Counted from the first letter of the stretch, positions 1,978-63,908 are shown. The stretch: 64,000 nt of DNA from a virus (IMGVR_UViG_3300020439_000004:32001-96000); one strand, 5' to 3'. Notes: generated by a model from the sequence alone, not told the origin. Program-made: numbers and translations.

Positions 1978-2133
1978 TGGCTAAAAGTAAAAAAATTAAA
2001 GTTTTTTTGCAGAGGGGAGGGTTTTTTGAGAATTTTTGACTTTTCAGTTGACAGTCGAAGCCGCGGGGGGTGGTGATTTCTATAAACATCTTGCCACCAA
2101 AAGCGTAATATGTGTAAAATTATTTAACTATAT

Positions 2134-2805
2134 ATGTCATATAAGCAAAACAGGTCTTTGGGCCACATTGAGTTAACAGAAAAGCAGTCAGAGTTTCATA
2201 AGATTATGAGAAGCCCACAAACGCGGGTTGCCTTTATAAGCGGGCCAGCAGGAACGGCGAAGACCTTTTTATCTATATATACAGCATTATATAAACACTA
2301 TGATGATAATCTGCTTAATATCTTATATCTGAGAAGTTTGGCAGAGAGTGCTGATAAGGGGATGGGTTTTCTGAAAGGTACGATGGATGATAAATTTGGA
2401 CCATACGTTGGGCCGTTAGAAGATAAATTGGAGGAGTTGCTGAGTCCCGCAGAAAAGAAACATATTGAAATGAAACAAGTCGTCCAAGCAGCTCCAATTA
2501 ACTTTATGAGAGGAGCTACATGGAGAAATAAAGTTGTGATTGTAGATGAGGCGCAGAATATGACTATAAAAGAACTTACTACAATACTAACAAGAATAAG
2601 CAGAAATAGTACATTGTTTATATGTGGAGATACGATGCAGAGTGATATTAAGAAAACGGGGTTTGCTAGATTTTGTGAAGTATTTGATGATGAGGAGAGT
2701 CGAAGTTATGGGATACATCATTTGGAGTTTACTAAGGATGATGTGATGAGGGATAAGATTATAGGCTATTTAGTAGAAAAAATTGAAAAAAGTAATTTAA
2801 ATTAA
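2134..2805 (+). CDS. phoH: PhoH-family ATPase
   Basis: GPAGTAKT Walker A, MGFLKG, FMRGAT, IVDEAQN, GDTMQSD motifs. Confidence 0.93.
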   Translation: MSYKQNRSLGHIELTEKQSEFHKIMRSPQTRVAFISGPAGTAKTFLSIYTALYKHYDDNLLNILYLRSLAESADKGMGFLKGTMDDKFGPYVGPLEDKLEELLSPAEKKHIEMKQVVQAAPINFMRGATWRNKVVIVDEAQNMTIKELTTILTRISRNSTLFICGDTMQSDIKKTGFARFCEVFDDEESRSYGIHHLEFTKDDVMRDKIIGYLVEKIEKSNLN

Positions 2806-2811
2806 TAAAAT
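2783..2811 (+). promoter_or_regulatory. sigma70 promoter TTGAAA-17-TAAAAT, leaderless for 2818
   Basis: 6 nt before the ATG at 2818. Confidence 0.6.
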
Positions 2812-2817
2812 AAAGCT

Positions 2818-3186
2818 ATGAATAAGATGTTTTGTGTGTCGTGCGGGTTTAAAATACTCTATGAAGTAAGTAAACCTAAGTTTTGTTCTAGTTGTGGGCA
2901 TAATTTAGCAGGAATAACTAAAGCTAAAGTGGCTGAAGAGCCAGAAGAGGAGTCATCTATTGATTCTATTGATGTTAATAAGTTAAAAAGGAATATTTCT
3001 GTTGATTATAGTTCAGCTAAAACAACTTTAAAAGATATAATAGCTAGCTCTACTGCCGCGGATGCTAATCCAGAGTATAAGAGTAGACCAGCTTCAACCA
3101 ATGCTGAAGGAGATGCCTTGCTTAAGCAGATTCAACAAGAATGTGCTTCATCAAGAATGCGAGATGTAGATGAAGGAGGCGTTTGA
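2818..3186 (+). CDS. zinc-ribbon protein
   Basis: N-terminal FCVSCG...FCSSCG. Confidence 0.75.
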   Translation: MNKMFCVSCGFKILYEVSKPKFCSSCGHNLAGITKAKVAEEPEEESSIDSIDVNKLKRNISVDYSSAKTTLKDIIASSTAADANPEYKSRPASTNAEGDALLKQIQQECASSRMRDVDEGGV

Positions 3187-3850
3187 AGATAAACGCGAAG
3201 ATCTAGATCAACTTTTATTAAAATATAGACCTAAGTGGCAATTAAGCGCATTAGCATGGTTAGACTATGATGACGTTTGTCAGATAATTCGCTTACACGT
3301 TTATAATAAGTGGCATCTTTGGGATCAGTCGCGCCCATTTAAACCTTGGGCTTCTATGATTATCTCTAATCAGATAAAGAATCTGATCAGGAATAATTAT
3401 ACTAGTTTTGCTAAACCATGTTTGCGCTGTCAGTACAACATGGGTGGAACATTGTGTGATTGGACAAAGAGCGGAGATCAGGATAGAACATGTGCTGATT
3501 TCAACAAATGGAAGAAAAAGAAAGAACGGGCGTATAATATTAAGCTTCCATTAACATTAGATGATGGAGTTGCTACTCAAAACACTTCATCTATTAAAGA
3601 TCAAGTAGATTACAAGTTATCATCTGGCAGGTTGCATGAGTTAGTGATGACTCAGCTTAGTGAGCGGCATAAAGCGATATATGCCATGCTTTATATTGAG
3701 CATAAGGATGAGAAAGAGGTTGCTAAGAAATTTGGCTTCAAAGGAGACTCTACTAAAAGAAAAACAATAAGATATAAGCAAATATCTAATTTAAAAAAGA
3801 AATTTTATAGAATCGCAATTAAAATAATAGAGGACAACGATATACTATGA
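3170..3850 (+). CDS. RNA polymerase sigma factor (sigma70/ECF-like) with Cys-rich insertion
   Basis: region-2-like DYDDVCQ...FKPWASMIISNQIKNLIR; region-4-like LSERHKAIYAMLY...EVAKKFG. Confidence 0.75.
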   Translation: MKEAFEDKREDLDQLLLKYRPKWQLSALAWLDYDDVCQIIRLHVYNKWHLWDQSRPFKPWASMIISNQIKNLIRNNYTSFAKPCLRCQYNMGGTLCDWTKSGDQDRTCADFNKWKKKKERAYNIKLPLTLDDGVATQNTSSIKDQVDYKLSSGRLHELVMTQLSERHKAIYAMLYIEHKDEKEVAKKFGFKGDSTKRKTIRYKQISNLKKKFYRIAIKIIEDNDIL

Positions 3851-4908
3851 GTGAAGTAACTTTGACAGAGGAACAAAAACAACAAATAGAAAAATTATTT
3901 AAATCAAACCCCGATTTAAGAGATATCACCCAAAAAGTGTTTGATGATGAGAGTTTGGATGGTAGGTCGAAGCAAGGTAGGGCTGTTAGAGCATTCTTGA
4001 TTAAAAGCGATTTAACCTACAAAACTACTTTGGTTGACAAAGCAGAAGAGATAGATTTAACAACAGAGCAAAAGCAATTTTTAATGAGCAACAATATAGA
4101 GCGCGGAATGAACGCGCTAGAAGTTGCTCGTTTGACTTTTAAGGATAGAGAGATACAACCGCTTAGTCAGCAGCATAGAGTGACTATGGACTTTCTGAGA
4201 AAGTATCGCCCAGAGATAGTTGATGATAATGAAATGCTAACAAATGATAAGTGGTCGCCGCCAAAGTCCTTATCTAGAGCTATCAAAAAAGTCAATGACT
4301 GGGCTGGACAAAACTTTGATGAAATAACAATACAAACAAAACATAAAAAAATGTGCGAAAAGCTCTTGTTGTATCTCAAGAGTCCAAGATTTGTACATTT
4401 TATCAATCAATATTCTACAATAGCAGATAGAGAATTATTTGAGAGTGAATATGTCAGGACTGTATGGGACAAACCTGATTTAACTAATGATGAGCTTAAC
4501 TTGTACATCACTGTATGTACAAACTATGTACGCCAAAAGCATATTCAACAGAGAATAGACAAACTCAATGCTATGCTCAACGATTCTGAGAATGAGCAGA
4601 ATATTACTATAAGACTAACAGAAATAATCAAAGCCACCAGTGAAGAACTCAACCAATGTGAGAAAAGAATAGAATCGCTCACAAAAGATCTTAACGGAAG
4701 TAGGCAAGCGCGACTGAAAGCGCGTGGTGAAGAAAACGGTAGCATCGCAGCGCTCGTCGAAGCGTTTCAAGAAAAAGAAGAGCGAGATCGTATGATTCTA
4801 ATGGCAGAGATGCAAAATAAGCTCGTTGAAGATGAAGCTAATAGACTTGAGACTATGGACGAGTACAAAGCTCGTATACTTGGAATATCTAAAAAAGAAT
4901 TACTCTAA
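3847..4908 (+). CDS. hypothetical helical protein (possible terminase small subunit/packaging factor)
   Basis: position upstream of TerL; duplicated LTxEQKQ helix; C-terminal coiled coil. Confidence 0.45.
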   Translation: MSEVTLTEEQKQQIEKLFKSNPDLRDITQKVFDDESLDGRSKQGRAVRAFLIKSDLTYKTTLVDKAEEIDLTTEQKQFLMSNNIERGMNALEVARLTFKDREIQPLSQQHRVTMDFLRKYRPEIVDDNEMLTNDKWSPPKSLSRAIKKVNDWAGQNFDEITIQTKHKKMCEKLLLYLKSPRFVHFINQYSTIADRELFESEYVRTVWDKPDLTNDELNLYITVCTNYVRQKHIQQRIDKLNAMLNDSENEQNITIRLTEIIKATSEELNQCEKRIESLTKDLNGSRQARLKARGEENGSIAALVEAFQEKEERDRMILMAEMQNKLVEDEANRLETMDEYKARILGISKKELL

Positions 4909-5858
4909 TGGAATACAAGTGCAAAGAATGTGATAGAGAATTTGATAGCCGAAGAGGTTTTCATCTTCATTTGAAGGCGCATGCTTTGACTATAGGTGAT
5001 TATTATGTAAAACATTTTGATAGAAGAGATTTATATACAAATGATAGAATTCCATTCAAAAATTATGACCAGTATTTTAGAGATAATTTTACTAGTTATG
5101 ATAATTTTATAAAATGGGTTAATTCTGCTCCTGACAAAGATGTTAAGACACTGCTTAAGTCAAAAGCACAAGATAAATTCTCTTATAAGGGGATCGGTCT
5201 ATCTCCACCGAATCTTTATTATGATTTATCAGAGATGGCTAATATCAACCTCTATAAGAAATTATGGGGAAGCTATTCTAATTTTCTACAAGAATTAGAA
5301 ATAGAGAACTTCTATACAAAATCTCTGCCCCGAAACTTCTGGGATGACCCACATGACGACATAGAGATCTTTGTAGACACAAGAGAGAAAGCCCCACTTA
5401 AATTTAAGAATGCTATACAAAACAAATTAGACTTTGGGGATTATACAGTTGGAGGAGAACTTTACTCTAAAACATTTGTAGATAGGAAAGCACAAGACGA
5501 TTTCAGACACACATTTGGCAAAGACATCAACCGCTTCAGGAGAGAGATGGATAGATGTGTGCAATTTGATTCTTATATGTTTGTTGTAGCAGAAACAAAT
5601 ATAGAAAAACTAGAAAACCATAATAAAAGATCTAAATTCAAATCCAACCTAAGCTATCTCTGGCACAATGTCAGAGGTTTAATGGTAGAATACCCTAGAA
5701 ACTTACAAATCATATTTGCCCACAATAGAGCAGGAGCAAAGAAGATAATACCAAAAATACTTTTTTACGGTAAGGATTTGTGGAATGTAGATTTACAATA
5801 TTTTATAGACGAGAAAGTACATGGCTTGGAACAAAGGAGAACAAGGATATCGGCTTGA
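4908..5858 (+). CDS. C2H2 zinc finger + ERCC4/XPF-type nuclease
   Basis: CKEC-x12-HLKAH; VDTRE...GDY...DRK ERCC4 signature. Confidence 0.75.
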   Translation: MEYKCKECDREFDSRRGFHLHLKAHALTIGDYYVKHFDRRDLYTNDRIPFKNYDQYFRDNFTSYDNFIKWVNSAPDKDVKTLLKSKAQDKFSYKGIGLSPPNLYYDLSEMANINLYKKLWGSYSNFLQELEIENFYTKSLPRNFWDDPHDDIEIFVDTREKAPLKFKNAIQNKLDFGDYTVGGELYSKTFVDRKAQDDFRHTFGKDINRFRREMDRCVQFDSYMFVVAETNIEKLENHNKRSKFKSNLSYLWHNVRGLMVEYPRNLQIIFAHNRAGAKKIIPKILFYGKDLWNVDLQYFIDEKVHGLEQRRTRISA

Positions 5859-7713: not shown

Positions 7714-7756
7714 AAAGTTTCAAAGTAACTTTTATAACTTTAGTGTAAACTTTTAT

Positions 7757-9721
7757 ATGCCACGAAAATATACCAAAAGATCTGATTATTGGAACAAATT
7801 TAGAAAATCTGAGCAACCTATAGAAAGTCTACTTTCTTCAGAAGCTGAGAACTTTAATCCTGAACTCATAGGAGATAGCATCTATGAAAGCGTAGAAGCT
7901 TCTAGACTTTCAGAGCCTACAAAAAGAACTTCTAAGAGAAATAATAGAATTACTATTAACCCAGCTAAAAACAGGTTCCAGAATATTAAAGATGGCCTTT
8001 TGCCATTTGAGTATTCAAAAGATTCTGTAAGCGTTAAAGAGGCTATAGAGCTTTGCCAAAAAGCTTATTTCAACATAGCTACATTTAGAAGCACAATAGA
8101 TCTTTTATCTGAATTTGCTGATTCAGACATTTATCTTGAAGGCGGCACACAAAAATCAAGAAATTTTATAGATGCGTGGTTTAAGAGAATCAAAATGCAC
8201 GATCTTAAATCTCAGTTCTTCAGAGAGTACTACAGATCAGGCAATGTTTTCTTGTATAGAGTTGACGGTGTACTACCTCTCAGAAATAGCCAAAAAGTTT
8301 TAGAGGCTTATGGAGCTAGCTCAAGATCAAAGGTTCCTATTAAGTATATGGTTATAAACCCAACTGATGTGGCAACAAAGGGTTCTGTTTCTTTTACTGA
8401 TTATAGTTATTTTAAAGTTTTGACTCCTTTTGAGATAGCAAGACTTAAAAACCCACAAACAGAACACGAACAAGAACTTTTCAACTCTTTACCAGAGGAT
8501 GTGCAAACAAGAATTAAGGTTGGTACTTCAGCAAACAGCGAGAGACTTTATATAGAATTAGATACAGATTATTTGCATCCTGTCTTTGCTAAGAAGCAAG
8601 ATTATGAGCCAATGGCTGTTCCAGCAGGTTTCTCTGTACTTGATGATTTAAACAAGAAAATAGAATTAAAGAAAATAGATCAAGCTATTAGCCGCTCTAT
8701 TGAAAATGTAGTTTTATTAGTAACCATGGGGGCTGAACCTGATAAGGGTGGTGTTAATCACAAAAACTTAGCTGCTATGCAACAAATATTTAGAAACCAG
8801 AGTGTTGGTAGAGTTCTTGTATCTGACTATACAACAAAAGCCGACTTTGTTATTCCTGATCTTAGGAAGGTTGTTGGCTCTGAGAAGTATGAGGTATTAA
8901 ACAAAGATATTGAAGAAGGTCTTCAGAATATTCTAATTGGTGATACTAAATACTCAGACGGCAAAATTAAAATGAAAGTATTTTTCCAGAGACTAGAAGA
9001 ATCTAGAAATTTATTTTTAAAAGAATTTATAAACCCTGAAATAAGAAGAATTTGTAAGAATGCAGGTTTGCGTTCTTGGCCAGAGGTAAAGTTTGTTAAG
9101 AATGACACATTAGATGATGACAACTTAACTAAGCTAGCTACAAGGCTTATGGAGCTTGGAGTAATTACTCCAGAGCAAGGAATGAAGGTTGTTGCAACTG
9201 GTACATTCCCAGATCCAGAAGAGATGGCTCCAGCTCAAGACAGGTTTAAAGAAGAAAGAGAAAAAGGTTATTACATGCCTCTAGTTAATACTATTAACTT
9301 ATATGATGACGATGATACTCCTGATAAACCTGCTCCAGCAGATACACCACAAGCTGTAGCTCCTTCAGGTGGCAGACCAGTAGGAGTATCTAATTCTAAA
9401 GTTTTCTCAAAGAAAAATATTATTGCTGCTACTAAACAAGTTAATGAATTTGAACTTAGAGCATTTAGAGAATTTGCCGCGAAATTCGGTCTTAAGAGAA
9501 TGTCTAAAGAAAAGAAAGAATTAGTATCTCGCGCTTGTGAGTCTATTATAGTAGCAAAAGATCACACTCAATGGGATGAGTCTCTTGCAGAGGTTGTAGA
9601 TAATTTAGATTCTCTAGCATCTCTTGGAGTGCATGATAAAGTGCTTGAGTTAGGTGCTGAACATCAGCTAGATGATTTATCTTCTGCAATTTTATATCAC
9701 TCTACGCAAATTTGCGTGTAA
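7757..9721 (+). CDS. portal protein
   Basis: directly follows TerL; FREYYRSGNVF and MVINPTDV portal-like motifs; start moved to ATG 7757 behind a GTGTAA motif. Confidence 0.82.
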   Translation: MPRKYTKRSDYWNKFRKSEQPIESLLSSEAENFNPELIGDSIYESVEASRLSEPTKRTSKRNNRITINPAKNRFQNIKDGLLPFEYSKDSVSVKEAIELCQKAYFNIATFRSTIDLLSEFADSDIYLEGGTQKSRNFIDAWFKRIKMHDLKSQFFREYYRSGNVFLYRVDGVLPLRNSQKVLEAYGASSRSKVPIKYMVINPTDVATKGSVSFTDYSYFKVLTPFEIARLKNPQTEHEQELFNSLPEDVQTRIKVGTSANSERLYIELDTDYLHPVFAKKQDYEPMAVPAGFSVLDDLNKKIELKKIDQAISRSIENVVLLVTMGAEPDKGGVNHKNLAAMQQIFRNQSVGRVLVSDYTTKADFVIPDLRKVVGSEKYEVLNKDIEEGLQNILIGDTKYSDGKIKMKVFFQRLEESRNLFLKEFINPEIRRICKNAGLRSWPEVKFVKNDTLDDDNLTKLATRLMELGVITPEQGMKVVATGTFPDPEEMAPAQDRFKEEREKGYYMPLVNTINLYDDDDTPDKPAPADTPQAVAPSGGRPVGVSNSKVFSKKNIIAATKQVNEFELRAFREFAAKFGLKRMSKEKKELVSRACESIIVAKDHTQWDESLAEVVDNLDSLASLGVHDKVLELGAEHQLDDLSSAILYHSTQICV

Positions 9722-9729
9722 AGGAGGTT

Positions 9730-11250
9730 ATGCAATTGGATGATTTTAATATTTGCCAATTTGAAGGCAAGATAAGAGAAATAAAAGAAGAGGAATTTGA
9801 GGCGTTCGGTTTATCAGAAGGTTCTATAGCAGAGGCGGCTCAATCATTGCTCCCAGAAGACTTTGATCCAGAACAGAATATAGATGTTCTGCCAGTTGTA
9901 TTTAATTTGGCGAAAGTTAACGAGTTTAATAAAAATGGTGATGGGATTGATTCCAAGACAGCCGTGGCTGCCGTAAAAAGATTTATCAACAAGCCAATAA
10001 ATATTGAACATAAAAAAGATAAAATAGTCGGCCATATGATTAATGCGTCCTTCTCTACACGAGAGTTTGACTTTAAAAATAACGACATTGAATCTTATGC
10101 CGACAAAACTGAGCCTTACTATATAAATGCAGCAGGTCTTATTTATAGACAAATATATCCAAAATTAGCTGACGCAATAATGGAAGCCTCTGATGATAAT
10201 GATGAGACGTATCAATCCATTTCTGCGAGTTGGGAATTAGCCTTTAAGCAATACGAAGTAACATATGGTTCAAACATTTTAGAAGATTCTAAGGTTTTAA
10301 CTGGTAGCGAAAAAGAAGAGAAAAAGCAGTATTTAAAGGGTCTTGGTGGAAAAGGGCAAGATGACGACGGAGTTCCCGTCAATAGATTAATTGTTGGTGA
10401 AACCTATCCTCTGGGTGCAGCCCTAACAAGAAATCCTGCCGCAGCAGTCAAGGGTGTTTACCCAGACGAAGCCAAAGATGAAAAAATGGAATCAGAAAAA
10501 ATTTCCCTAAATAGCAATAAAAATGTAAATGCAGACAAATTTAAATTTATTTTTAATAATATGGACAAAGAACAATTCGACGAACTTATGGCTAAAGTTG
10601 GCGAGAGTGTTGCTTCTGTAGTGAAGCAAGAGTCTGAAGCTTCAACTATTGGCGAAATCATGCGTGATGCACTCACGGACCACAGCGAATCTTGGAAATC
10701 CAAGGTTGAGCTTGAGCGGGAGGCTAAAGCCAAGGCTGAAGCCGATCTTTCTGAAGTTAAGGAAGCCCTTGACGCTACGAAAGAGGAATTAGAAACTCTT
10801 AAAGCTGAAGCTGAAGCTAAAGCAACTGCTGATCTTTTCAACGATAGAATGAATTTTATCGACAATGATTACGATCTTAATGAGCAGGAGCTTGAGTTAG
10901 TCACTGCTGAAGTCAAAGAATTGGAATCTACTGAAGAAGCCTTCGAAGCTTACAAAGGTAAATTGCAGGTAATCTTTGCTCACAAACTCAAAGCTAATAT
11001 TGAAGCCAAAGAAGCTGAGATAAAAGCAAGAATCGAGGAAGCTGTTGCTAGTAAGAGTGAAGATGCTGTTGAGGAAGAGGCTCCAAAAGCTGACCCTCAG
11101 CCTGAGCCTGAGCCAGAACCAGCAGAAGAGTTAGAAGTTGAAGAGGATGAAGAAGCTGAAGCTTCAATTCCAAACAACAACGCTGACGCTAGTGAAAAGA
11201 TTTCTTTAGTCGAAAGACTCAAGAAGAACTTCTCTGTAGAAGTATCCTAA
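9730..11250 (+). CDS. prohead protease / scaffold fusion
   Basis: NKNGD, PINIEH, SASWE protease-like motifs; acidic coiled-coil C-half with PQPEPEPEP; start moved to ATG 9730. Confidence 0.78.
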   Translation: MQLDDFNICQFEGKIREIKEEEFEAFGLSEGSIAEAAQSLLPEDFDPEQNIDVLPVVFNLAKVNEFNKNGDGIDSKTAVAAVKRFINKPINIEHKKDKIVGHMINASFSTREFDFKNNDIESYADKTEPYYINAAGLIYRQIYPKLADAIMEASDDNDETYQSISASWELAFKQYEVTYGSNILEDSKVLTGSEKEEKKQYLKGLGGKGQDDDGVPVNRLIVGETYPLGAALTRNPAAAVKGVYPDEAKDEKMESEKISLNSNKNVNADKFKFIFNNMDKEQFDELMAKVGESVASVVKQESEASTIGEIMRDALTDHSESWKSKVELEREAKAKAEADLSEVKEALDATKEELETLKAEAEAKATADLFNDRMNFIDNDYDLNEQELELVTAEVKELESTEEAFEAYKGKLQVIFAHKLKANIEAKEAEIKARIEEAVASKSEDAVEEEAPKADPQPEPEPEPAEELEVEEDEEAEASIPNNNADASEKISLVERLKKNFSVEVS

Positions 11251-11288
11251 TTAAACAATTAACTATTAACTATTAAATACTAATAATC

Positions 11289-11912
11289 ATGGCAAACGAA
11301 ATTACACGTTTATTGCCGTTTCGTCAATACGATGAGAATGATGTTGTAAACTTCTATTCTCTTGATGCCGAAACGGGCGAAGCGGGTTCTGTTGTTAGAG
11401 TTAGCGCTGCTAACTTAGACCAAGAACCTGTAAAGTATGTCGAAAGAGGCGATAGCAATTCTTACGACAATACGTTGGGCCACGGACTATCATTGTATCC
11501 TGAAGTACCGTACAAAGTTACTAAATGTACAGGCACTGGTGCAACTCAGATTCCGTTGGGTATTTTGTTACGGGATGTCCGTGCAAAAGATGAAAATGGT
11601 GAAAATCTTCTCTACTATCCAGAGAAGAAAGAAGAACTTCAGTGCGTTGTATCTGGAGAAGCTGTACCTATCGCAACTAAGGGTTTATTTACAATGAATG
11701 TAAATGCTCTTAAGGGTGGGTTAGCTCCTGCAATCAACTCTCTTGCTGTTTGTTCTACTAACGGAACTCTTACTGGTGTTGCTCGCTCTTCTGCGTCATC
11801 AAATCAGAAAGATGTTGCTGTTGGTAAGTTCATCGCCACAGGTCAGCGTGAGTCATCTAATACAACTGATGCTTTCGCTGGTTCATACGCAATCCTTAAA
11901 CTTGAACTGTAA
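11289..11912 (+). CDS. capsid decoration/cement protein
   Basis: lies between scaffold and major capsid protein; beta-rich, PLGILL...VPIATKG pattern. Confidence 0.6.
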   Translation: MANEITRLLPFRQYDENDVVNFYSLDAETGEAGSVVRVSAANLDQEPVKYVERGDSNSYDNTLGHGLSLYPEVPYKVTKCTGTGATQIPLGILLRDVRAKDENGENLLYYPEKKEELQCVVSGEAVPIATKGLFTMNVNALKGGLAPAINSLAVCSTNGTLTGVARSSASSNQKDVAVGKFIATGQRESSNTTDAFAGSYAILKLEL

Positions 11913-11931
11913 TTAGGAGGAAATATTACTT

Positions 11932-13077: not shown

Positions 13078-13102
13078 TCGACAGACACAATCTGACATTA
13101 TT

Positions 13103-13136
13103 AAGAGTCGCCTCGAAAGGGGCGGCTCTTTTTTTT
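13103..13136 (+). terminator. intrinsic terminator
   Basis: AAGAGTCGCCTC-GAAA-GGGGCGGCTCTT followed by a T-run. Confidence 0.9.
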
Positions 13137-13168
13137 GATATTTTAATTAAAATTGATATTATATATAT

Positions 13169-13591
13169 ATGAGTAAGAAAAAGTCTCCAAAGAAAATGAC
13201 GGTATCTAAAGGTGTAGAAAAGAAGAATTTAGAGGAGTTTGATGTAACAGATGGTAAAGAAAGAGATAAAAAAGAAAAAGCTCTAGAAGAAGTAAAAGAG
13301 CTTGAAGAGTTGCTTGGAATGCCTCAAATGAATCCTTATGGAACCTTAAATAGAGACATCTTCAGACAAAGATTAGAGTCTTCATCCGCTTCAGATCTTA
13401 CAGATTTAGCTGCCAGAGTAGGCGTTCCTAGAGAAAGAAATATGAATCTTTTGAGGAAATCATTACTTCAATCTTTTGATTTCTATGCTCAAAAGCATAA
13501 CGTCACTGTACAAGGAAACGCTAAACCAATTATAGACCCAAGTTCCCCAGACTATGAAAAAACTGTAAAGTTATTTAAAGATTTACTATAA
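13169..13591 (+). CDS. hypothetical protein
   Basis: 140-aa ORF; TTGATA-16-TATTAT promoter 6 nt upstream. Confidence 0.7.
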   Translation: MSKKKSPKKMTVSKGVEKKNLEEFDVTDGKERDKKEKALEEVKELEELLGMPQMNPYGTLNRDIFRQRLESSSASDLTDLAARVGVPRERNMNLLRKSLLQSFDFYAQKHNVTVQGNAKPIIDPSSPDYEKTVKLFKDLL

Positions 13592-15174: not shown

Positions 15175-16046
15175 AGGCACAATTTGATCAGACATTACTA
15201 TCAAGTTTTTACTTGTGGTTTGAGAATTATTTATTAAAAGATAATTCGAAGGCTTATTCTACAGGAGCTAGCAATACATTTAAATATGTAGATTTTGCTG
15301 ATGTTCCGAGTAGTCATTATGGATATCAAGGGCAATTCAAACAACTTGTAGGAGAACATAGTGTAGATGTCCCTAACTCTGGCTTTTTCTCAGATGGAGG
15401 TTTTGTTACTGGCGATTATGATAATAATGGCGGTGTATTTACAGACTATGACAACGGAAGATTAATATTTCCCTCTGCCTCTGGTACTGGTCTAACTTTA
15501 ACAGCTAATTCTACTGTAAAAGAAGTAAATACTTATATTTCCTATGATGGTGATTTAGAGACTATTTTACATTCAGATTTCAAAGAAGCTGGAGCTAGTT
15601 ATCCTTATCAATACTCAAAAGATAGCGAGTTAGATGAGCAGATATTCTTTCTGCCAGCTTGTTTTATTTCTTTAGCTTCTTCTGATAATACAGAGTTTTC
15701 TTTTGGGGGTGAAGAAAATACAGAGTCTAGAGTAAGGGTTATGATTCTCAGTTCTGACAATTATATTATGGATTCTGTTATGTCGTTATTTAGAGATTCA
15801 GTTAGAAATGACTTTAAAAACGTACCTTACGAAAGTTTCCCATATGGCCCATTTTATTCTATAAAAAGCTATCCTTATACTTATGATGGATTAATTTCAG
15901 GGTTATCAAACCCAGAAACTACTCATATTGACAATGTAACTGTATCTAAAGTTGTTTCAGAACAACTAAGAGAAAACTTAAATAAGGGCATTTCTATTGG
16001 TTTTATAGACTTTGATTTATGCACTTACCGTTTCCCTAGGCTATAA
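15171..16046 (+). CDS. tail terminator-like protein
   Basis: LPACFIS...FSFGG motif; immediately precedes the tail tube gene. Confidence 0.5.
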   Translation: MKAQFDQTLLSSFYLWFENYLLKDNSKAYSTGASNTFKYVDFADVPSSHYGYQGQFKQLVGEHSVDVPNSGFFSDGGFVTGDYDNNGGVFTDYDNGRLIFPSASGTGLTLTANSTVKEVNTYISYDGDLETILHSDFKEAGASYPYQYSKDSELDEQIFFLPACFISLASSDNTEFSFGGEENTESRVRVMILSSDNYIMDSVMSLFRDSVRNDFKNVPYESFPYGPFYSIKSYPYTYDGLISGLSNPETTHIDNVTVSKVVSEQLRENLNKGISIGFIDFDLCTYRFPRL

Positions 16047-16087
16047 AATAGTGTAAAGATGGTTAAACATTTTTATTCTTAAATTTT

Positions 16088-17313: not shown

Positions 17314-17340
17314 AGCCTCGCCTTCGGGCGGGGCTTTTTT
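17314..17340 (+). terminator. intrinsic terminator with cUUCGg loop
   Basis: AGCCTCGCC-TTCG-GGCGGGGCT-TTTTT. Confidence 0.9.
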
Positions 17341-17356
17341 ATGTGTAATATACAGT

Positions 17357-21124: not shown

Positions 21125-21143
21125 TTAGTGTAATTTACACTAT

Positions 21144-37839: not shown

Positions 37840-37877
37840 TGAATTAGTGTAAAGTTATTTAGATAATCTATTGTAGT

Positions 37878-39386: not shown

Positions 39387-40475
39387 TCAAACACTGTATA
39401 TACAGTCTAAGATAGAATCTATGGTCTTTTTATAGGTAAATTTGTCACGCAATTTTGTCCCTTCTGTGTTAATTTGTCCCACTTTTTCTTCTGCTTTTTC
39501 CATAGCAGAGAGTATAGCTTTACCATCTAATTTGTAATATTGTCCTTGATTGAATGGAGCGCCCTCTTTGAAAAACAAGTTATCATAACAAGGTTGCTTT
39601 CCTATGGGATCTACAAGTATGGCGTTGTCTTTTGTGGCCCAATCTTTATGTGAACTACAGTTACTTACTAAAGACCATTTACCCAAAGCTGTAGCGTTAA
39701 ATGCGGGTAAATTCCAACCTTCGCCATTTGATAAGCCAGATAAATCAATATCAATATTGTTCATTAATATATTCACCTCTTCGTTTGTTTTAAGATGAGG
39801 TAAAAAATTAATATTACTCCAATGTTGATTCATTGTAGAGCTATTAATAGCCTGTTGCATTTGCTCTTGATTTAAAAAAGAATTATTTACCAAGCAACTC
39901 AACTGATATTTAGGATTATTGCCATATTTATTCAGCCATAATTGTATCAAAGCTTGAGTATTTTTTCTTCTTTCAAACTTTCCAATCAACCCAAAATGAA
40001 TAACTTCTTTATCAAATTCTTTTGGTATTTCTTTAAAGTCTGGGTCAAAACCAAGAGGTACTGCGGAGACGTTTGTGCAGCCTTTTTGCTTAAATGCATC
40101 GGCAGCTTCCGTTGAAGAAAAGAAAACGTGTTTCTGCATTTTAACAATGTTAACTTCCTCTGTTGTTGGAGAATCTAATTCATAAAAAGTATATAGATAT
40201 TGATTTTGACCTAATGTTTTTTCTGATCCATTTAAGTGCCAAAGTTTTAAAGTGGGAGTATCTTTATCAAGTTTTGCTAGCCTTTGTGCCGCGATTGAGG
40301 ATGTCCATTGTTTAAAATCATCATCAATAGTATTGAAAGCTGAAAAATCTCCTTGATCTCCTATAGGATGAAGACTGATATCAATATCTTGCTCCTTTAA
40401 AACTCTTAAAAAGTTTATAGAAACATTACCAAAGCTCAATGCATTTATAGGAGCTTCAAAGTTTAATTTTTTCAT
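39387..40475 (-). CDS. GT4 glycosyltransferase
   Basis: GKFERRKN, SNGEGWNLPAFNA. Confidence 0.8.
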   Translation of the reverse strand: MKKLNFEAPINALSFGNVSINFLRVLKEQDIDISLHPIGDQGDFSAFNTIDDDFKQWTSSIAAQRLAKLDKDTPTLKLWHLNGSEKTLGQNQYLYTFYELDSPTTEEVNIVKMQKHVFFSSTEAADAFKQKGCTNVSAVPLGFDPDFKEIPKEFDKEVIHFGLIGKFERRKNTQALIQLWLNKYGNNPKYQLSCLVNNSFLNQEQMQQAINSSTMNQHWSNINFLPHLKTNEEVNILMNNIDIDLSGLSNGEGWNLPAFNATALGKWSLVSNCSSHKDWATKDNAILVDPIGKQPCYDNLFFKEGAPFNQGQYYKLDGKAILSAMEKAEEKVGQINTEGTKLRDKFTYKKTIDSILDCIYSV

Positions 40476-41082
40476 TTTCTATTTTGTTTTTTAATTCTTT
40501 TATGGCTCTATCATGGATATTTATGCAACCTTGAGCTGAAAGATTTACTTTTTCTGCCACTAGTTTCCAAGGTTTTAATTTACATCCTTTGCCGTTAAAA
40601 TATCTTTCATTAAAGATTGTTTTAAGGCGTTCGTCTTTATGTTTAAAGATTAAGTTTAAAATTCTTTTAAATGAGTCGTTAAACAGACAACTTTCATCAG
40701 GGGTTTTGTGTTTATCTTTTTGGTTGTTCCTTTTTTGTTCTTCCCTTTCTTCAAAGCTGACTAGTCTTGAATTCTTTTTATTTTTAGTTTTTTGGGTTAA
40801 GCACATATACTTGGTTTTATTCGCCAAGTGTGTAGAAAATTTAGCTTTTTCAGGCTTATATTCTAAAGCAGCTTTATAAATAACATAATCTTTATCTTCC
40901 ATAATATCATTTATTTGATTGAAAGATAAGCCGTTATAGCCAAACTTTTTAAGCATGTCCACATAAATACCAGAATGCCTAGAAATTAACTCTTGGAGAG
41001 CTAATTCATCGTTTTTTTCTTGTATTAAAACCGCTAAGTCGGTGTCTGTCAGAGATTTAGTCAATAAACTACTATATTTCAT
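40456..41082 (-). CDS. second RNA polymerase sigma70-family factor
   Basis: ALQELISRH...KAALEYKPEKAKFSTH (region 2); VAEKVNLSAQGCINIHDRAIKELK (region 4); true start may be TTG 41064 behind TTGATT-16-TATAGT. Confidence 0.82.
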   Translation of the reverse strand: MKYSSLLTKSLTDTDLAVLIQEKNDELALQELISRHSGIYVDMLKKFGYNGLSFNQINDIMEDKDYVIYKAALEYKPEKAKFSTHLANKTKYMCLTQKTKNKKNSRLVSFEEREEQKRNNQKDKHKTPDESCLFNDSFKRILNLIFKHKDERLKTIFNERYFNGKGCKLKPWKLVAEKVNLSAQGCINIHDRAIKELKNKIENEKIKL

Positions 41083-41115
41083 AAATAAAAAAAATCAACT
41101 TTTTTTTGATTTTTG

Positions 41116-41290
41116 TTGACAGGGGTAAAAATTTTCCTATCATTACGTAATCCGTAAGGTTACGATATCCTTTACTTACCTTCACTGTAAGGTTACGATA
41201 TAACTATTACGTCACCCTCTTAACGTAAACCTTACGAAAAATATTTATATTACTTCGTAATATATAAATATTTTAAGCTTCGCTTTTTTT
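41116..41290 (+). other. promoter + direct/inverted repeats + AT hairpin (origin or ncRNA candidate)
   Basis: TTGACA-16-TATCAT; GTAAGGTTACGATAT x2; inverted CGTAAACCTTACG; AT-rich hairpin; T-run. Confidence 0.6.
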
Positions 41291-41348
41291 ATAAAAATAA
41301 TTAATTGACATACTTCTCTCGTCGTATAAGCTCGTGTAAATTTACGCA

Positions 41349-43966: not shown

Positions 43967-44003
43967 TTTCCCTTTCTAAAAGTGTAGTGTATATACAGTC
44001 ACT

Positions 44004-44123
44004 ATGGCTGAATTATACACAATACTAACAGAGGAGCAGGATACGCAAGATCCTGACTTTACGTCAGATGATACCTTAGCTTTTATTTTAGGTAAAATAG
44101 ACGAAGAAATCTCTGAAGATTAG
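44004..44123 (+). CDS. 39-aa acidic protein (MAELYTILTEEQDTQDPDFTSDDTLAFILGKIDEEISED)
   Basis: read by hand; preceded by a TTTCCCTT-12-GTGTAT promoter-like motif. Confidence 0.55.
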   Translation: MAELYTILTEEQDTQDPDFTSDDTLAFILGKIDEEISED

Positions 44124-53243: not shown

Positions 53244-53249
53244 TTAAAA

Positions 53250-59453: not shown

Positions 59454-59475
59454 AATTATTAGTAGATCATAAAGT

Positions 59476-59858: not shown

Positions 59859-60079
59859 TGGATGCTGAAAAACAAGAAGAGTTAAAAGCTCTTTTAGTAT
59901 CTGAAATGGTATCTAGAATCACGGTAGCGGAGGCTGTCAATATAATGCACAACATCGCTATTTCGGAAGTCGATAAAAATATCGCAAAAATGTCTGATGA
60001 GGAGAAACTCTCAGCTTTGGAGGAACTTACAAAAAGAGTAAATCCTTCTGAAGAAAATGAGTCAAATTTGGAAATTTAA
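59858..60079 (+). CDS. hypothetical protein
   Basis: 73-aa coupled ORF. Confidence 0.65.
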   Translation: MDAEKQEELKALLVSEMVSRITVAEAVNIMHNIAISEVDKNIAKMSDEEKLSALEELTKRVNPSEENESNLEI

Positions 60080-60095
60080 GTGTAAGACACAGAGA

Positions 60096-60572: not shown

Positions 60573-61401
60573 AGTTTTAATAACTGGAGCTGGCGGTTTT
60601 ATAGGAGGTAACTTAGCCGCATATTTAGAAGCTTGTGGCTTTCAAGTTACAAGATTTGATATATCTTTAGGTAACACTGGTTATCCAGATATTTTTAATC
60701 AAGATTTTGTTATTCATCTTGGTGCAAATTCAAGCACTACAGAAACCGATCTAAAAAAAATATTAGATCAAAACTTTGAATACTCGGCCAACCTTTACAA
60801 GATGTGCGAGGCTTATGAGATAAAGTTTCAATATGCTAGTAGCGCATCTGTTTATGGCGCATCTAAAACTTTCAAAGAAGATGAGTTTTGTAAACCATTA
60901 AGTCCTTATGCTTTTAGCAAGTATATGTTTGACTGTTGGTTAATGAATCAAGAATATCCATACCAAGGTTTTAGATATTTTAATGTGTACGGTTTGGGTG
61001 AAGATAAAAAAGGAAAGCAAGCTAGTCCTGTTTCAAAATTTATAAAAGAAGCGCAGACAGGCGGTAAGATAAAAATCTTTGAGAAAAGCGAAAAATATAA
61101 AAGAGATTTTGTTTCTGTAGATGATGTGTGTGAAATGCACTACAAGCTTTTGGCAAATGACGCTTCAGGAATATTTAACATAGGTACAGGTGAGCCTATC
61201 TCTTTCAGAGATGTAGCAGAGATAATAAAAGAAAATTCTAACTCTGAGATAGAAGAAATACCAATGCCCAAAGAGCTAAAAGGGCAGTATCAAAAATTTA
61301 CAAAAGCTGATATATCAAAGCTAAATGAAATAATTGGTGATTATGAGTGGAAAAGTGTAAGTGAATATGTAGAAGAAAACATTGATGCTTTCCTTAATTA
61401 A
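60565..61401 (+). CDS. hldD: ADP-L-glycero-D-manno-heptose 6-epimerase
   Basis: ITGAGGFIG, HLGANSSTTE, YASSASVYG, PYAFSK, FRYFNVYG..E.KG.QAS, RDFV, YQKFTKAD; GTG start 60565. Confidence 0.85.
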   Translation: MNRVLITGAGGFIGGNLAAYLEACGFQVTRFDISLGNTGYPDIFNQDFVIHLGANSSTTETDLKKILDQNFEYSANLYKMCEAYEIKFQYASSASVYGASKTFKEDEFCKPLSPYAFSKYMFDCWLMNQEYPYQGFRYFNVYGLGEDKKGKQASPVSKFIKEAQTGGKIKIFEKSEKYKRDFVSVDDVCEMHYKLLANDASGIFNIGTGEPISFRDVAEIIKENSNSEIEEIPMPKELKGQYQKFTKADISKLNEIIGDYEWKSVSEYVEENIDAFLN

Positions 61402-61651
61402 AAGTGTTTTAAAATCAATTGAGCTATATTTATCTTTAAAAAATAAGCTCTTCTACATAGAATTAAGACATAACCATGAAAAAACACGCAAAAGAATTAT
61501 TCAAGAGCTTGAAGATATTAGGGCTAGTGGCGGTGATGCAGACCGTGCTGATCTCTTGCGAGACGAACTCATCCGTGAAGACGCAAGTTTTAAATATTTA
61601 TCAGCCTTCTACGCTGAGTCTAGAGAAGGGAAGTCCGATAAGGACAACTAA
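61385..61651 (+). CDS. i-spanin-like (Rz-like) helical protein
   Basis: overlapped in another frame by a lipoprotein ORF; coiled-coil; N-terminal anchor only weakly hydrophobic. Confidence 0.4.
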   Translation: MLSLIKSVLKSIELYLSLKNKLFYIELRHNHEKTRKRIIQELEDIRASGGDADRADLLRDELIREDASFKYLSAFYAESREGKSDKDN

Positions 61652-61745
61652 AGGTATTTACACTCCTCAAGCCGATGAGGTTTGGCACTCTGATGCGAGG
61701 TTCCGCAAACTTGAGCGCCAGTTATATTTTCCCAGCAATAAGTGA
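61476..61745 (+). CDS. lipoprotein, o-spanin-like (Rz1-like)
   Basis: basic N-terminus, hydrophobic stretch, lipobox VLIS-C. Confidence 0.6.
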   Translation: MKKHAKELFKSLKILGLVAVMQTVLISCETNSSVKTQVLNIYQPSTLSLEKGSPIRTTKGIYTPQADEVWHSDARFRKLERQLYFPSNK

Positions 61746-61767
61746 GCTTTTTGTGTAATTAAGACAA

Positions 61768-63318
61768 ATGGCTTTTATTACTGGAATTCCTATTAGAAAT
61801 AGTATACACACCGAAGAATCCACAAGTGTGGCTGATTGGGGTAAATACAGGTCAGAATTAACTGGTCTTTATATTACTGGTGAGGGTACTGGAGCGATGT
61901 ATGAACAATACGCGGCGCAAGATTTCAGAGAGTACAATAAAAAAATACATGATTTAGGTCTTAATGAATTTAACTCAGACCTTTATTTGAGGCCATTTGA
62001 TGCTGGGTTTAGATATACGCATGATCCATTATTAGGCAAATATAGCAACGCTGCTGGAGCTTATTCTACAAAAGATATAGGTTTTGGAGGTTATCTCATG
62101 AGCATCAGAACAAACGCTGATGCACTAAACAGGGAAGCTTATGTTTTAGGAGATACTACTGGCAATATTTCATTAGAAGCTATGGTAGCACCAACAGGAA
62201 CTGGATTTCCTAATTACACATATGAATTTGGTAATACTTTAGGAACAGGATCTCAAAACGGTCCGTATGAAGTTGAAACCTTTCAATCTAATATATCAGG
62301 AAGAGAATATGAACTAACTCGCGTCAAAACTGGTTGGTTTGAAGATTTAACTGGTTATATGAATACTTATGAGGCGTTTCCCGCTTATGAACTAAGCAGC
62401 GATGTTGAAGCGCAAAGTTTTGCTTTAAATATTCCAAAAGCTCCTGATGGAAGTGTATTAGTCTATCCGTATAGAGTTTTATATTTTGGCTTTTTAAATG
62501 TCTGGGTAGTAAATACTTGGAGACTTAAAGATGGGGATACTGAGGCAACTGAGGAAGCTTTCTATGTTTACAAAAGTGAAGCTGAAGCAGCAGGTGCAGG
62601 ATTACAATTCGGACCGCAAAATTTTGTTGTAAGCGCGAAGCCTGTCTATTCCACTTTAGGAGCTTTTGTAGGCCAAGCTAACGCATATGTCACAGACTGG
62701 TACGATCAGTCTCATACAGGGTCAGAGCGGAACAACCTCATACAAGAAACTGCGGCTGATCAACCTACTATTGTTAATGGCGGCTCTTTAGTGACAGATT
62801 CAAGTGGAAATACAGCTTTAGATTTTGACGGAAGCAATCATCACATGACATTAAATACTGGGTTTTCTAGTACTTTGAATATAAGTGGTTTAGCTTCTTA
62901 TACTGTTTTTGAAGCTGATACTACAGGGGCGAATCAAATGGTTGCCTGTTTAGGAAGTTTTGCTGATTCAACCAAGAGATGGTACTGTCCTTATTTATTT
63001 AACGGCACATTTAGTATGAATTATGGTGGAAGTGCTGCTTTTTCTACTACAGCTAACACAAATTTAAATTTAATTAGCATGACAGCCGATTCAACACAAG
63101 GTGCAATGAGAGGTTTCTTAAATGGATCTCAAGTAGGAGGAAATGGCACTTTGGAAAATAAAAGTGGAGGAACCTCTCTTGTAGGAGTTGGAGGCTTGGG
63201 TGACAGTTTACATTTTAACGGGAAGATTGGAGAGTTTCTTATTTATTCAGGCGAAGGCGTATCAACAAATAGAGAAGCTATAGAAGCTAATATAAACAAA
63301 AGGTTCGGTATTTATTAA
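61768..63318 (+). CDS. virion/receptor-binding protein with C-terminal LamG/ConA-like domain
   Basis: VTDWYDQS...LIQ..AADQPTIV...LDFDG...FNGKIGEFLIY; GTGTAA 9 nt upstream. Confidence 0.65.
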   Translation: MAFITGIPIRNSIHTEESTSVADWGKYRSELTGLYITGEGTGAMYEQYAAQDFREYNKKIHDLGLNEFNSDLYLRPFDAGFRYTHDPLLGKYSNAAGAYSTKDIGFGGYLMSIRTNADALNREAYVLGDTTGNISLEAMVAPTGTGFPNYTYEFGNTLGTGSQNGPYEVETFQSNISGREYELTRVKTGWFEDLTGYMNTYEAFPAYELSSDVEAQSFALNIPKAPDGSVLVYPYRVLYFGFLNVWVVNTWRLKDGDTEATEEAFYVYKSEAEAAGAGLQFGPQNFVVSAKPVYSTLGAFVGQANAYVTDWYDQSHTGSERNNLIQETAADQPTIVNGGSLVTDSSGNTALDFDGSNHHMTLNTGFSSTLNISGLASYTVFEADTTGANQMVACLGSFADSTKRWYCPYLFNGTFSMNYGGSAAFSTTANTNLNLISMTADSTQGAMRGFLNGSQVGGNGTLENKSGGTSLVGVGGLGDSLHFNGKIGEFLIYSGEGVSTNREAIEANINKRFGIY

Positions 63319-63321
63319 TAT

Positions 63322-63612
63322 ATGAAATATTTACTTTTTAATACAAAACAAGAAGCTCAAAACAGGAGCGCACAAGAAGCACAAGCAAGATGTTGTTCTG
63401 GCACTACAAAATATTGGTGGACAGTGAAACAAACTAAAGCGGGCAAATGGGCTTTATGTATTGATAATCCATATCCAAGGGTAACAGAAGAAACCATAGA
63501 ATTTGATGGTGAAGAAATGACAGTGCCGACTAACTCTTTAGCAGGATTAACTCCAACAGAAATATCAAATTTAAAAAATTCTGTCGTCTGGCCTGATGTT
63601 CCAACTCTTTAA
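63322..63612 (+). CDS. small protein downstream of RBP (fibre-chaperone-like)
   Basis: 96-aa ORF, TKYWW motif. Confidence 0.55.
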   Translation: MKYLLFNTKQEAQNRSAQEAQARCCSGTTKYWWTVKQTKAGKWALCIDNPYPRVTEETIEFDGEEMTVPTNSLAGLTPTEISNLKNSVVWPDVPTL

Positions 63613-63655
63613 AAAAAAGTTGATAAATATTATTTAGTGAATAATATGTATATAT

Positions 63656-63862
63656 ATGAAAACTATTGAATTCACTGATCAGGAATTGCAGGTTCTCACA
63701 CAACTTTTGGACATCGCAGTAAAAGCTGGCGGTCTCAATGTTGCTGAAGCTGCAAGCGTACTCGCAAGGAAAATTTCTCAAGAAATTGAGCAAACTCCTC
63801 AATTTGCAGAACCTTCAATCGCTCCCGTAGAGGATGACGAAGAAGAAAGCGGAGAGGAATAA
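63656..63862 (+). CDS. hypothetical protein
   Basis: LLDIAVKAGGLNVAEAA helix plus acidic tail. Confidence 0.65.
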   Translation: MKTIEFTDQELQVLTQLLDIAVKAGGLNVAEAASVLARKISQEIEQTPQFAEPSIAPVEDDEEESGEE

Positions 63863-63908
63863 AATATTTCCCTTGACGATTACAAAATTGTAATATAAAG
63901 TTAAGATT

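Follow-up and report, generated by a model that had tools for sequence, protein, structure and literature searches.

Introduction

The Thermus phages phiYS40 and P23-45 use promoters without a -35 element, and their middle and late mRNAs start at the start codon, i.e. they are leaderless. In phage phiEco32, the phage-encoded sigma factor gp36 reads a single element, tAATGTAtA, and transcription starts 6-8 bp downstream of it (PMC8948821). Salmonella phage 7-11 has a two-element phage-sigma promoter, GTAAtg-N16-aCTA, which is read by gp47, a sigma factor that keeps region 4; all late promoters of this phage are bipartite (PMC8948821). ECF (group 4) sigma factors normally need both a -35 and a -10 box (PMC7776599), and a CGT-type -10 box is found in an ECF promoter of Flavobacterium psychrophilum (PMC9723704). 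Private promoters of phage sigma factors have been described before, as have leaderless late genes, and the principle is not new.

Here we describe a box, GTGTA(A/T), that lies 8-11 bases ahead of many start codons in the 109-kb genome of an uncultured marine phage and in many of its relatives. The window analysed is a stretch of 64,000 nucleotides of this genome. With a probability of roughly 65%, we infer that GTGTA(A/T) forms the -10-type core of a promoter specific to the phage, at which the host core polymerase and one of two phage ECF-like sigma factors would start transcription about 9 nt past the box.

A search for cultured relatives by blastn of the terminase-capsid region and by tblastn of the portal protein and of the phage sigma factor sigma1 against 50,697 phage records gave no match; nrdA matches were scattered over unrelated phages. 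Homologues of sigma1 form 356 clusters, many of them from Tara samples, and the phage clade is thus common in ocean metagenomes.

The GTGTA(A/T) box and its placement

The overall number of GTGTAA copies in the window is at chance level (28, compared with 27.1 in shuffled sequences). Across the genome, 18 of the 51 copies fall in the sense-strand 50-nt windows upstream of starts. This 12-fold enrichment (p 5e-14) over the genome-wide frequency is what a preliminary description of the window had made its promoter proposal depend on. In the upstream windows of this genome GTGTAA ranks first among the 4096 6-mers, low-complexity ones aside, and it is the top specific upstream 6-mer in five whole related genomes, this one and four others, with an enrichment of 9-15-fold in the latter. 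The upstream placement recurs in 134 related loci and the enrichment is 13-14-fold even in loci where the sigma1 identity is as low as 41-47%, many of the box counts being drawn from related sequences and therefore not independent. When a Staphylococcus phage was treated in the same way as a control, the Shine-Dalgarno sequence came out instead. A literature search for GTGTAA as a promoter returned nothing relevant, and tRNAs were not found in the window.

All positions and spacings of GTGTAA and GTGTAT that had been described before were correct on re-examination. The GTGTAA sites, apart from the two-box ones described below, are:

2112-2117, plus strand: GTGTAA, 16 nt before the phoH ATG (2134), heading the phoH - w2818 - sigma1 operon; kept in G001 (N13) and G002 (N12) though the flanks differ
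7743-7748, plus strand: GTGTAA, N8 before the portal ATG (7757)
9716-9721, plus strand: GTGTAA, N8 before the protease/scaffold ATG (9730); the TAA of the box doubles as the portal stop codon
17314-17348, plus strand: intrinsic terminator (17314-17335), T-run and GTGTAA (17343), N8 before the tube-paralogue ATG (17357)
21128-21133, plus strand: GTGTAA, N10 before the tape-measure ATG (21144), in a 13-nt palindrome with 21135-21140
37847-37852, plus strand: GTGTAA, 25 nt before ATG 37878; N25 kept in G001 and G002
41334-41339, plus strand: GTGTAA, N9 before the nrdB ATG (41349), with a host-type TTGACA-N16-TAAGCT immediately upstream; same layout in G002
60080-60085, plus strand: GTGTAA, N10 before ATG 60096
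61753-61758, plus strand: GTGTAA, N9 before ATG 61768 of a 516-aa, putatively receptor-binding protein

The identities of nrdB and nrdA were confirmed by Pfam. Without any gene calling, ATG is found 3-4-fold over background at offsets 8 and 9 past GTGTAW. The spacing between box and ATG never falls below 8, with a mode of 8-9, and a third of the sites stand 15-40 nt from the start. The box is thus a strand-specific element at a short, set distance upstream of transcription units, as expected of promoters of the sigma-70 family. The minimum and the mode support the earlier suggestion that it is placed like a -10-type element for leaderless or near-leaderless mRNAs. Furthermore, the TA of the box stands at the same distance from the ATG as the -10 TA in the phage's own host-type leaderless early promoters. 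An A is favoured at the ninth base past the box also where no start codon lies there (31 of 55 long-leader and 40 of 64 N9-13 site clusters, compared with a background of about 42%; significance per position is nominal only).

Among all genes, no more than 6-9% have a Shine-Dalgarno-like 4-mer upstream, and control windows placed within genes contain one more often. The lack of a Shine-Dalgarno sequence between box and AUG is therefore a genome-wide property and not specific to genes with a box. An exception is the protease site (9716), where AGGAGG is present. The clues to the host conflict: three of the five MAG-binned contigs with sigma1 are Flavobacteriales, in line with the Shine-Dalgarno depletion, whereas the enrichment of TTGACA ahead of genes suits a host with a canonical sigma-70.

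Two further patterns were considered and not claimed. An apparent bimodal spacing, with an N12-14 gap in close relatives, vanished in the wider set. Inside genes, sense-strand GTGTAA is the second rarest of 90 hexamers of the same composition; avoidance is not claimed, since the count agrees with a Markov-4 model (61 vs 52) and the ban on in-frame TAA confounds the test.

Conservation and the genes that carry the box

Across 54 related loci, retention of the box is gene-specific. It is kept before portal in 42 of 47 orthologous loci (at N8-11), before the tail tube gene in 53 of 54, before the tube paralogue in 31 of 32 and before the tape measure in 10 of 10; before the protease, GTGTA[AT] is kept in all 47 loci, even where the portal stop codon sits elsewhere. 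It was never found before terminase or capsid in these 54 loci. At a protein identity of about 50%, the box is kept gene by gene while the flanking bases and the preceding terminator hairpin change. At the tube paralogue the hairpin varies by compensatory substitutions and the box is invariant.

Palindromes at the tape-measure site (21128-21140) and at 43987 (GTGTATATACA), as well as tandem boxes 10 nt apart ahead of the tube gene in many relatives, would suit an operator half-site at which a phage regulator, binding as a dimer, represses or activates promoters nearby. We consider such a role most improbable, as the second half-site is missing at most sites, the orientation of the box is always that of the downstream gene and its distance to the ATG is fixed to the base. 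Most distinct sequences, though not all, have the tape-measure palindrome, and some relatives have lost it but retain the box. Palindromes, which occur at few sites and are not conserved where the box is, were therefore rejected as the underlying signal.

The early region is nearly free of the box (1 of 58 genes, compared with 19 of 85; Fisher p 3e-4). This agrees with the original view of late targets, mostly morphogenesis genes. The label "late" is nevertheless too narrow, because the nrdB replication operon and the phoH-sigma operon begin with the box as well, and several small genes are preceded by it. In addition, near-consensus host-type promoters are present at some structural genes, so that the temporal split is not a clean one.

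Upstream TTCCC elements and terminators

At a minority of sites the box has an upstream partner:

10503-10528, plus strand: two-box TTCCC-N16-TGTAA within the protease/scaffold gene; the in-frame ATG 10561 follows after 32 nt
13543-13568, plus strand: two-box TTCCC-N16-TGTAA, 27 nt before ATG 13596; conserved in G001, G002 and G004
16031-16056, plus strand: two-box TTTCCC-N14-GTGTAA (GTGTAA at 16051), 31 nt before the tail tube ATG (16088)
43967-43992, plus strand: two-box TTTCCC-N14-GTGTAT (GTGTAT at 43987), N11 before ATG 44004 of a 39-aa acidic protein; similar site in G001
63868-63893, plus strand: two-box TTCCC-N16-TGTAA, 15 nt before ATG 63909; conserved in G002

The layout within the protease gene is also present in G001, G002 and G004, with a variable spacer, and the nested product predicted from ATG 10561 is a scaffold-like protein of 229 aa.

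The preliminary description had read TTTCCCT and GTGTAA as a -35/-10 pair. TTTCCCT does lie at 16031, 43967, 10502 and 63867, and its recurrence at a set spacing is significant: TTCCC is found 14-16 nt upstream of GTGTAW at 3 of 20 sites, compared with 0.03 expected (p 4e-6), and this was repeated in two more genomes. The partner is, however, restricted to 8 of 147 site clusters (about 5-8%). At the tail tube, TTCCC overlaps Phe-Pro codons, where TTC is used in all 34 distinct sequences as compared to 27% TTC genome-wide; the TTCCC partners also include non-coding cases. CTTCTCT (41313) and TATCACT (9695), which had been put forward as variants, do occur, but their support goes no further than a weak TTC peak at such a spacing. 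TATCACT sits within conserved portal coding sequence.

As a general rule the pair does not hold, since most sites are without a -35 element. About a quarter of the boxes adjoin a T-run, often that of an intrinsic terminator whose hairpin fills the place of a -35 element, so that no room is left for one.

Boxes directly after terminators fit a restart of transcription rather than a signal in RNA. The box might act in RNA as a processing site, or, 8-11 nt ahead of the AUG, as a binding site for setting up translation in a host without Shine-Dalgarno pairing. Its overlap with the usual ribosome-binding window, its strand specificity and the lack of Shine-Dalgarno motifs in the genome would agree with this. 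Nevertheless, little RNA would pass the strong terminators that precede many boxes, a third of the sites are too far from the start to share the 8-11 nt position, and the TTCCC partner keeps a fixed DNA spacing, sometimes within the upstream gene, for which there is no rationale in RNA. Rfam families were not found in the window either. We therefore regard an action in RNA as very unlikely.

Two phage sigma factors

Two candidates for a phage factor that would read the box are encoded in the window; they are listed here with a host-type promoter ahead of sigma1:

3170-3850, plus strand: sigma1, a 226-aa ECF-like sigma factor with a Cys4 insert (C84, C87, C96, C108) between region 2 and a region-4-like helix-turn-helix
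40456-41082, minus strand: sigma2, a second sigma-70-family protein of 208 aa with orthologues in G001-G005 and G007
2783-2811, plus strand: candidate host-type promoter TTGAAA-N17-TAAAAT; the ATG of w2818, the gene ahead of sigma1, lies 6 nt further on; kept in G002

Profile searches and AF2 models support the earlier statement that the phage encodes two sigma factors. Sigma1 matches Pfam Sigma70_r2 (E 8e-8), weakly Sigma70_r4_2, and TIGR02937 with 45 bits, above the cut-off, as expected of an ECF sigma with regions 2 and 4 only. Its AF2 model contains a confident C-terminal helix-turn-helix, and all Foldseek matches of the model are sigma factors, with the M. tuberculosis ECF sigma L complex at the top. 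For sigma2, the TIGR02937 match is full-length yet below the cut-off (32 bits, E 5e-9), and the AF2 model matches sigma factors only.

As in the one-box system of the phiEco32 type, phage-encoded sigma factors co-occur with the motif, which is enriched in all sigma1-bearing locus groups. Since sigma1 and sigma2 are both present in every sufficiently complete relative, presence or absence does not separate the two. In 53 of 55 sigma1 loci the 2.5 kb upstream contain a box on the same strand, in most cases ahead of phoH, an arrangement that would allow autoregulation as in an ECF regulon, where the cognate promoter lies upstream of the sigma operon.

A model for the use of the box

We propose that the host core RNA polymerase with a phage-encoded ECF-like sigma factor binds GTGTA(A/T) and opens the DNA, and that transcription starts about 9 nt past the box. 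At N8 sites the mRNA would then begin at the AUG and be leaderless, at N9-11 sites it would have a leader of 1-3 nt, and at the remaining sites one of 12-40 nt. Most sites would be one-box promoters, often with a T-run just upstream, and a minority would add the -35-like TTCCC 15-17 nt before TGTA. In such a cascade, host-type promoters would drive the early genes and sigma1, the predicted promoter at 2783-2811 offering a box-free route to the first sigma1 expression; a phage sigma factor would subsequently switch on the replication, sigma-operon and virion genes.

It is also conceivable, though unlikely, that the host primary sigma factor reads the box as an odd extended -10 with GTG beside TAA, perhaps with a phage factor, and that the phage sigmas serve a few other promoters. 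The early promoters use a TGTGnTA-type extended -10, which resembles GTGTAA minus one base, their TA-to-ATG distance equals that of the box sites, and in distant relatives the w13169 orthologue is preceded by a host-type promoter whose spacer contains a box. A precedent would be the Thermus phages, in which host sigma A reportedly serves middle and late promoters that have no -35. However, the base matching T-7, the sixth place of TAAnnT, is T in only 47% of short-leader sites as compared to nearly all early promoters. The box is therefore unlike a host-type -10, and GTG plus a canonical TAAnnT was rejected as its main reading. The near absence of the box from the early region, and k-mer scans that yield no other specific motif for two conserved sigma factors, likewise argue against the host factor.

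What counts against a phage ECF-like sigma as the reader is that most sites lack the -35 box that ECF sigmas normally need at every promoter, though sigma1 keeps a region-4-like domain. A loss of region 4, as in the phiEco32 type, does not account for this, as the sigma2 match also spans the whole of TIGR02937. A more far-reaching version of the model, which we regard as doubtful, is that a region-4-bearing ECF-like sigma with a Cys4 insert starts at a one-box GTGTA without -35 contact, via the T-run or the insert. The two sigmas might then divide one-box (leaderless) and two-box (TTCCC, leadered) promoters that share a -10 core, and nearly the whole programme might run on leaderless mRNAs in a host without Shine-Dalgarno pairing. 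To our knowledge, initiation without -35 contact by a group-4 sigma has not been described.

If validated, such a promoter code would allow start codons to be called correctly and operons to be mapped on hundreds of contigs, and nested genes such as that of the scaffold start at 10561 could be detected. It would also provide a test case for a small sigma working without a -35 box and for leaderless expression in phages of hosts without Shine-Dalgarno pairing.

Comparison with known systems

In the Thermus phages the promoters are said to be read by host sigma A together with phage-made modifiers, whereas two phage sigmas are encoded here and the box is not a canonical -10. The ECF systems resemble the present one in sigma factors with regions 2 and 4 only, a GT-core -10, a spacing of 15-17 nt and a promoter upstream of the sigma's own operon. 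They differ in that the -35 is missing at most sites here, the upstream element is a pyrimidine-rich TTCCC and not of the AAC type, and sigma1 has a Cys4 insert. Like the promoters of Salmonella phage 7-11, the two-box sites have two elements and a 16-nt spacer, and region 4 is retained by the sigma in both cases, although the sequences differ and bipartite sites are a minority here.

Overall, the closest published analogue is the one-box promoter of phiEco32 gp36. Both systems have one TGTA-containing element without a -35, transcription that begins a few bp past it, a phage sigma on the host core and host-type early promoters (PMC8948821), which in our case is deduced from sequence. In the tblastn search of the 50,697 phage records sigma1 had no detectable sequence relation to gp36, and gp36 is without region 4, whereas sigma1 has a region-4-like domain. 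In contrast to phiEco32, the box described here has a position that suits leaderless starts, and a subclass of two-box sites is present beside the one-box ones.

Gene content and host signals

The window (bases 32001-96000 of the 108,942-bp IMG/VR virus record) has a G+C content of 35%. It carries phoH, a sigma factor gene and genes for terminase, portal, protease/scaffold, capsid, tail tube and a tape measure protein of 1500 aa, together with glycosyltransferases, nrdB, nrdA, a RecA-like protein, DnaB, primase, Pol III alpha and a ClpB-like ATPase. Among 50,697 phage records, no cultured relative was found by blastn of the terminase-capsid region or by tblastn of the portal protein or of sigma1, one of the two phage sigma factors. 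Of five MAG-binned contigs with sigma1, three belong to Flavobacteriales, and the genome as a whole is depleted in Shine-Dalgarno motifs; against these signs, the enrichment of TTGACA points to a host with a canonical sigma-70. AGGAGG nevertheless precedes the ATG of the capsid gene (11905-11931) and of the protease gene (9722-9729).

A conserved box upstream of start codons

The preliminary description had proposed GTGTAA as part of a late promoter read by a phage sigma factor, and the positions and spacings it listed were all correct on recheck. The total number of GTGTAA copies in the window is at chance (28 versus 27.1 in dinucleotide shuffles). Across the whole genome, 18 of the 51 copies on both strands lie within the 50 nt before ORF starts on the sense strand, so that the expected enrichment upstream of starts was borne out (12 times expectation, binomial p 5e-14). 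GTGTAA ranks second among all 6-mers in these upstream windows, behind poly-A, and an identical scan of four further whole genomes of the clade (G001-G004), and of pooled loci with sigma1 identities of 65-74%, 53-61% or only 41-47%, likewise ranked it first or close to first. As a control, the same script returned the Shine-Dalgarno sequence, not GTGTAA, from an unrelated AT-rich Staphylococcus phage. Without any gene calling, 476 GTGTAW sites are followed by ATG at offset 8 in 32 cases and at offset 9 in 26, over a background of about 8. Judged from sequence, GTGTAW is a real, conserved promoter-like code.

The tail tube protein served as query to collect 54 related loci (46-84% identity), and GTGTAW was counted in the 60 nt before each orthologue.

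Loci with GTGTAW in the 60 nt before the orthologue
Portal: 42 of 47
Protease/scaffold: 47 of 47
Tube: 53 of 54
Tube paralogue: 31 of 32
Tape measure: 10 of 10

Within the same 60 nt and the same 54 loci, the box precedes no orthologue of terminase, capsid, w11289, w14542, w15171, w19525, w20258 or w25652 (w denotes a gene by its window start coordinate). It is also retained in G001 and/or G002 before phoH, nrdB, w37878, w66241 and w68973. The surroundings of the box vary while the box itself stays constant. Before the tube paralogue, a terminator hairpin that differs between lineages with compensatory changes is followed by a T-run, the invariant box, 8-9 nt and the ATG; at the protease gene the box persists regardless of whether its TAA is the portal stop codon. 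That the box serves as an operator is unlikely, since its orientation is strict and palindromes are lost in places where the box persists.

Several individual sites deserve mention. In L005, L006, L011-L017 and other related loci, two GTGTAA boxes stand exactly 10 nt apart, about 35 nt before the tube ATG; the second tandem copy has decayed in the window. The tape-measure box (21128-21140) lies within a 13-nt palindrome, kept in most, not all, relatives, which creates a GTGTAA on the minus strand (21140-21135) directed into the upstream gene. Left of the window, the copies at genome positions 25557 (-), 28877 (+) and 30540 (-) belong to a repeated GC-rich palindromic early-region element and are not gene-proximal boxes.

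Distance to the ATG, terminators and the putative start point

In the 54 loci, 238 of 525 GTGTAA copies lie upstream of starts (12.4 expected), at distances to the ATG of 8 (78 sites), 9 (20), 10 (28) and 11 nt (16), with none at 2-7. A wider set of 147 site clusters, from all 134 loci and three genomes, has its mode at 8-9, tails off towards about 40 and includes hardly any site below 8. Host-type promoters of the phage's own early genes read TTGnnn-N16-18-(TGn)TAnAnT with the ATG 5-7 nt after, and when GTGTAA and these -10 boxes are aligned on their TA, the ATG positions coincide. Moreover, A is preferred at the ninth base after the box in 31 of 55 long-leader clusters, where no start codon is near, and in 40 of 64 clusters with 9-13 nt to the ATG (background about 42%), a signal weak per position and consistent. 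From this preference and the alignment we infer a transcription start about 9 nt downstream of the box. Sites with 8 nt would then give truly leaderless mRNAs, and those with 9-11 nt leaders of 1-3 nt.

At 36 of the 147 clusters, a run of at least four T ends no more than 3 nt from the box. Eleven of these runs close a stable hairpin and are thus terminators, all 11 at short-leader sites; several other sites have a terminator slightly farther upstream, and about half have no hairpin. In the window, a terminator at 17314-17335 stands directly before the box at 17343. Where a T-run or terminator adjoins the box there is no room for a -35 element. A promoter restarting transcription makes sense right after a terminator, whereas a signal acting in the RNA does not; such an RNA-level role is unlikely also in view of the long-leader class and of a TTCCC element spaced as in DNA.

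A two-box subclass

The TTTCCC-type -35 element of the preliminary description held up only in part: TTCCC is real, as a minority class mostly at longer leaders, not as the rule. Of 20 upstream sites in this genome, 3 have a TTCCC whose end lies 14-16 nt ahead of GTGTAW (0.03 expected, p 4e-6), a result repeated in G001 and G002, and 8 of the 14 TTCCC copies in the 147 clusters have this spacing. When the first G is not required, each genome has 8-10 copies of TTCCC-N14-18-TGTAW versus about 2.6 in shuffles. TTCCC is found in 8 of 75 long-leader and 3 of 68 short-leader clusters. Two-box sites are conserved gene by gene before tube, w13596, w63909, w66241, w68973 and the small ORF at 44004. 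The tube-gene TTCCC overlaps Phe-Pro codons, and TTC is used in 34 of 34 distinct sequences, compared with a share of only 27% of Phe codons genome-wide. For CTTCTCT and TATCACT, proposed as variants, there was no support beyond a mild TTC peak. One two-box site lies within a gene:

10503-10528: two-box site inside the protease/scaffold gene, with an in-frame ATG (10561) 32 nt downstream
10561-11250: nested ORF, 229 aa, with an acidic, helical, scaffold-like predicted product

G001, G002 and G004 all keep this site, with a spacer that varies, and separate expression of a scaffold protein and of the protease fusion is probable. A strongly acidic ORF of 39 aa (44004-44123) has its own two-box site, and the G001 record has a similar unit close to each of its ends.

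Temporal class

Of 58 early-region genes, 1 has the box upstream, versus 19 of 85 elsewhere (p 3e-4), in keeping with the proposed late class. Besides virion genes, the nrdB replication operon and the operon of phoH and sigma1 also begin with a box, and near-consensus host-type promoters stand before w13169 and w19525; "middle and late" is therefore a better description than "late". A promoter swap is seen after the capsid terminator (13103-13171): in this phage and close relatives, a host-type TTGATA-N16-TATTAT lies 6 nt upstream of the ATG; more distant relatives have GTGTAA in that place, inside the spacer of a host-type promoter.

Two sigma factors

The presence of two phage sigma factors was confirmed, both matching the ECF model and, in predicted structure, sigma factors only.

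3170-3850, plus strand: sigma1
40456-41082, minus strand: sigma2

Sigma1 matches Sigma70_r2 (E 8e-8) and scores above the cut-off of the ECF superfamily model. Its C-terminal helix-turn-helix is modelled with confidence, and four invariant cysteines lie between this helix-turn-helix and region 2; the best PDB match of its predicted model is the M. tuberculosis ECF sigma L complex. Sigma2 matches the full TIGR02937 model (32 bits, E 5e-9), with a score below the cut-off. Since both occur in every genome checked (G001, G002, the complete genomes G003 and G004, G005 and G007), presence or absence cannot tell which of them reads the box.

The strongest rival is that the box is an extended -10 read by the host sigma, as early promoters carry TGTGnTA; however, the equivalent of T-7 is poorly kept (47%), and this reading leaves no other motif for two conserved sigmas.

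In 53 of 55 loci, sigma1 has a box upstream at a distance of 2.5 kb at most, and the sigma1 operon combines the box before phoH with a predicted host-type leaderless promoter before w2818. This arrangement fits a course in which the host enzyme expresses sigma1 early and positive feedback sets in afterwards. w2818 (2818-3186), just before and overlapping sigma1, encodes a 122-aa protein with weak zinc-ribbon matches only, a candidate partner or anti-sigma. Sigma2 and nrdB are divergent, and the 266-nt stretch that separates them (41083-41348) contains a tandem 33-nt repeat (41135-41167 and 41168-41200, 76%) and several CGTAA..TTACG dyads, with ACGTA-rich repeats at this position in G001 and G002; it is a candidate operator or iteron array.

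Comparison with known systems

The -10 element of flavobacterial ECF promoters is of the CGT type, and leaderless transcripts make up only 5.5% of the mRNAs in F. psychrophilum (PMC9723704). Among phages, gp36 of phiEco32, which is without region 4, recognises one element, tAATGTAtA, and transcription begins 6-8 bp downstream of it; gp47 of phage 7-11, which retains region 4, reads a two-box promoter (PMC8948821). In the present phage, both architectures occur around a common TGTA core. By its sequence features, the promoter-like code is probably read by a phage sigma; it includes a two-box subclass, a nested scaffold start and the association with T-runs and terminators, and two sigma factors travel together with the motif.
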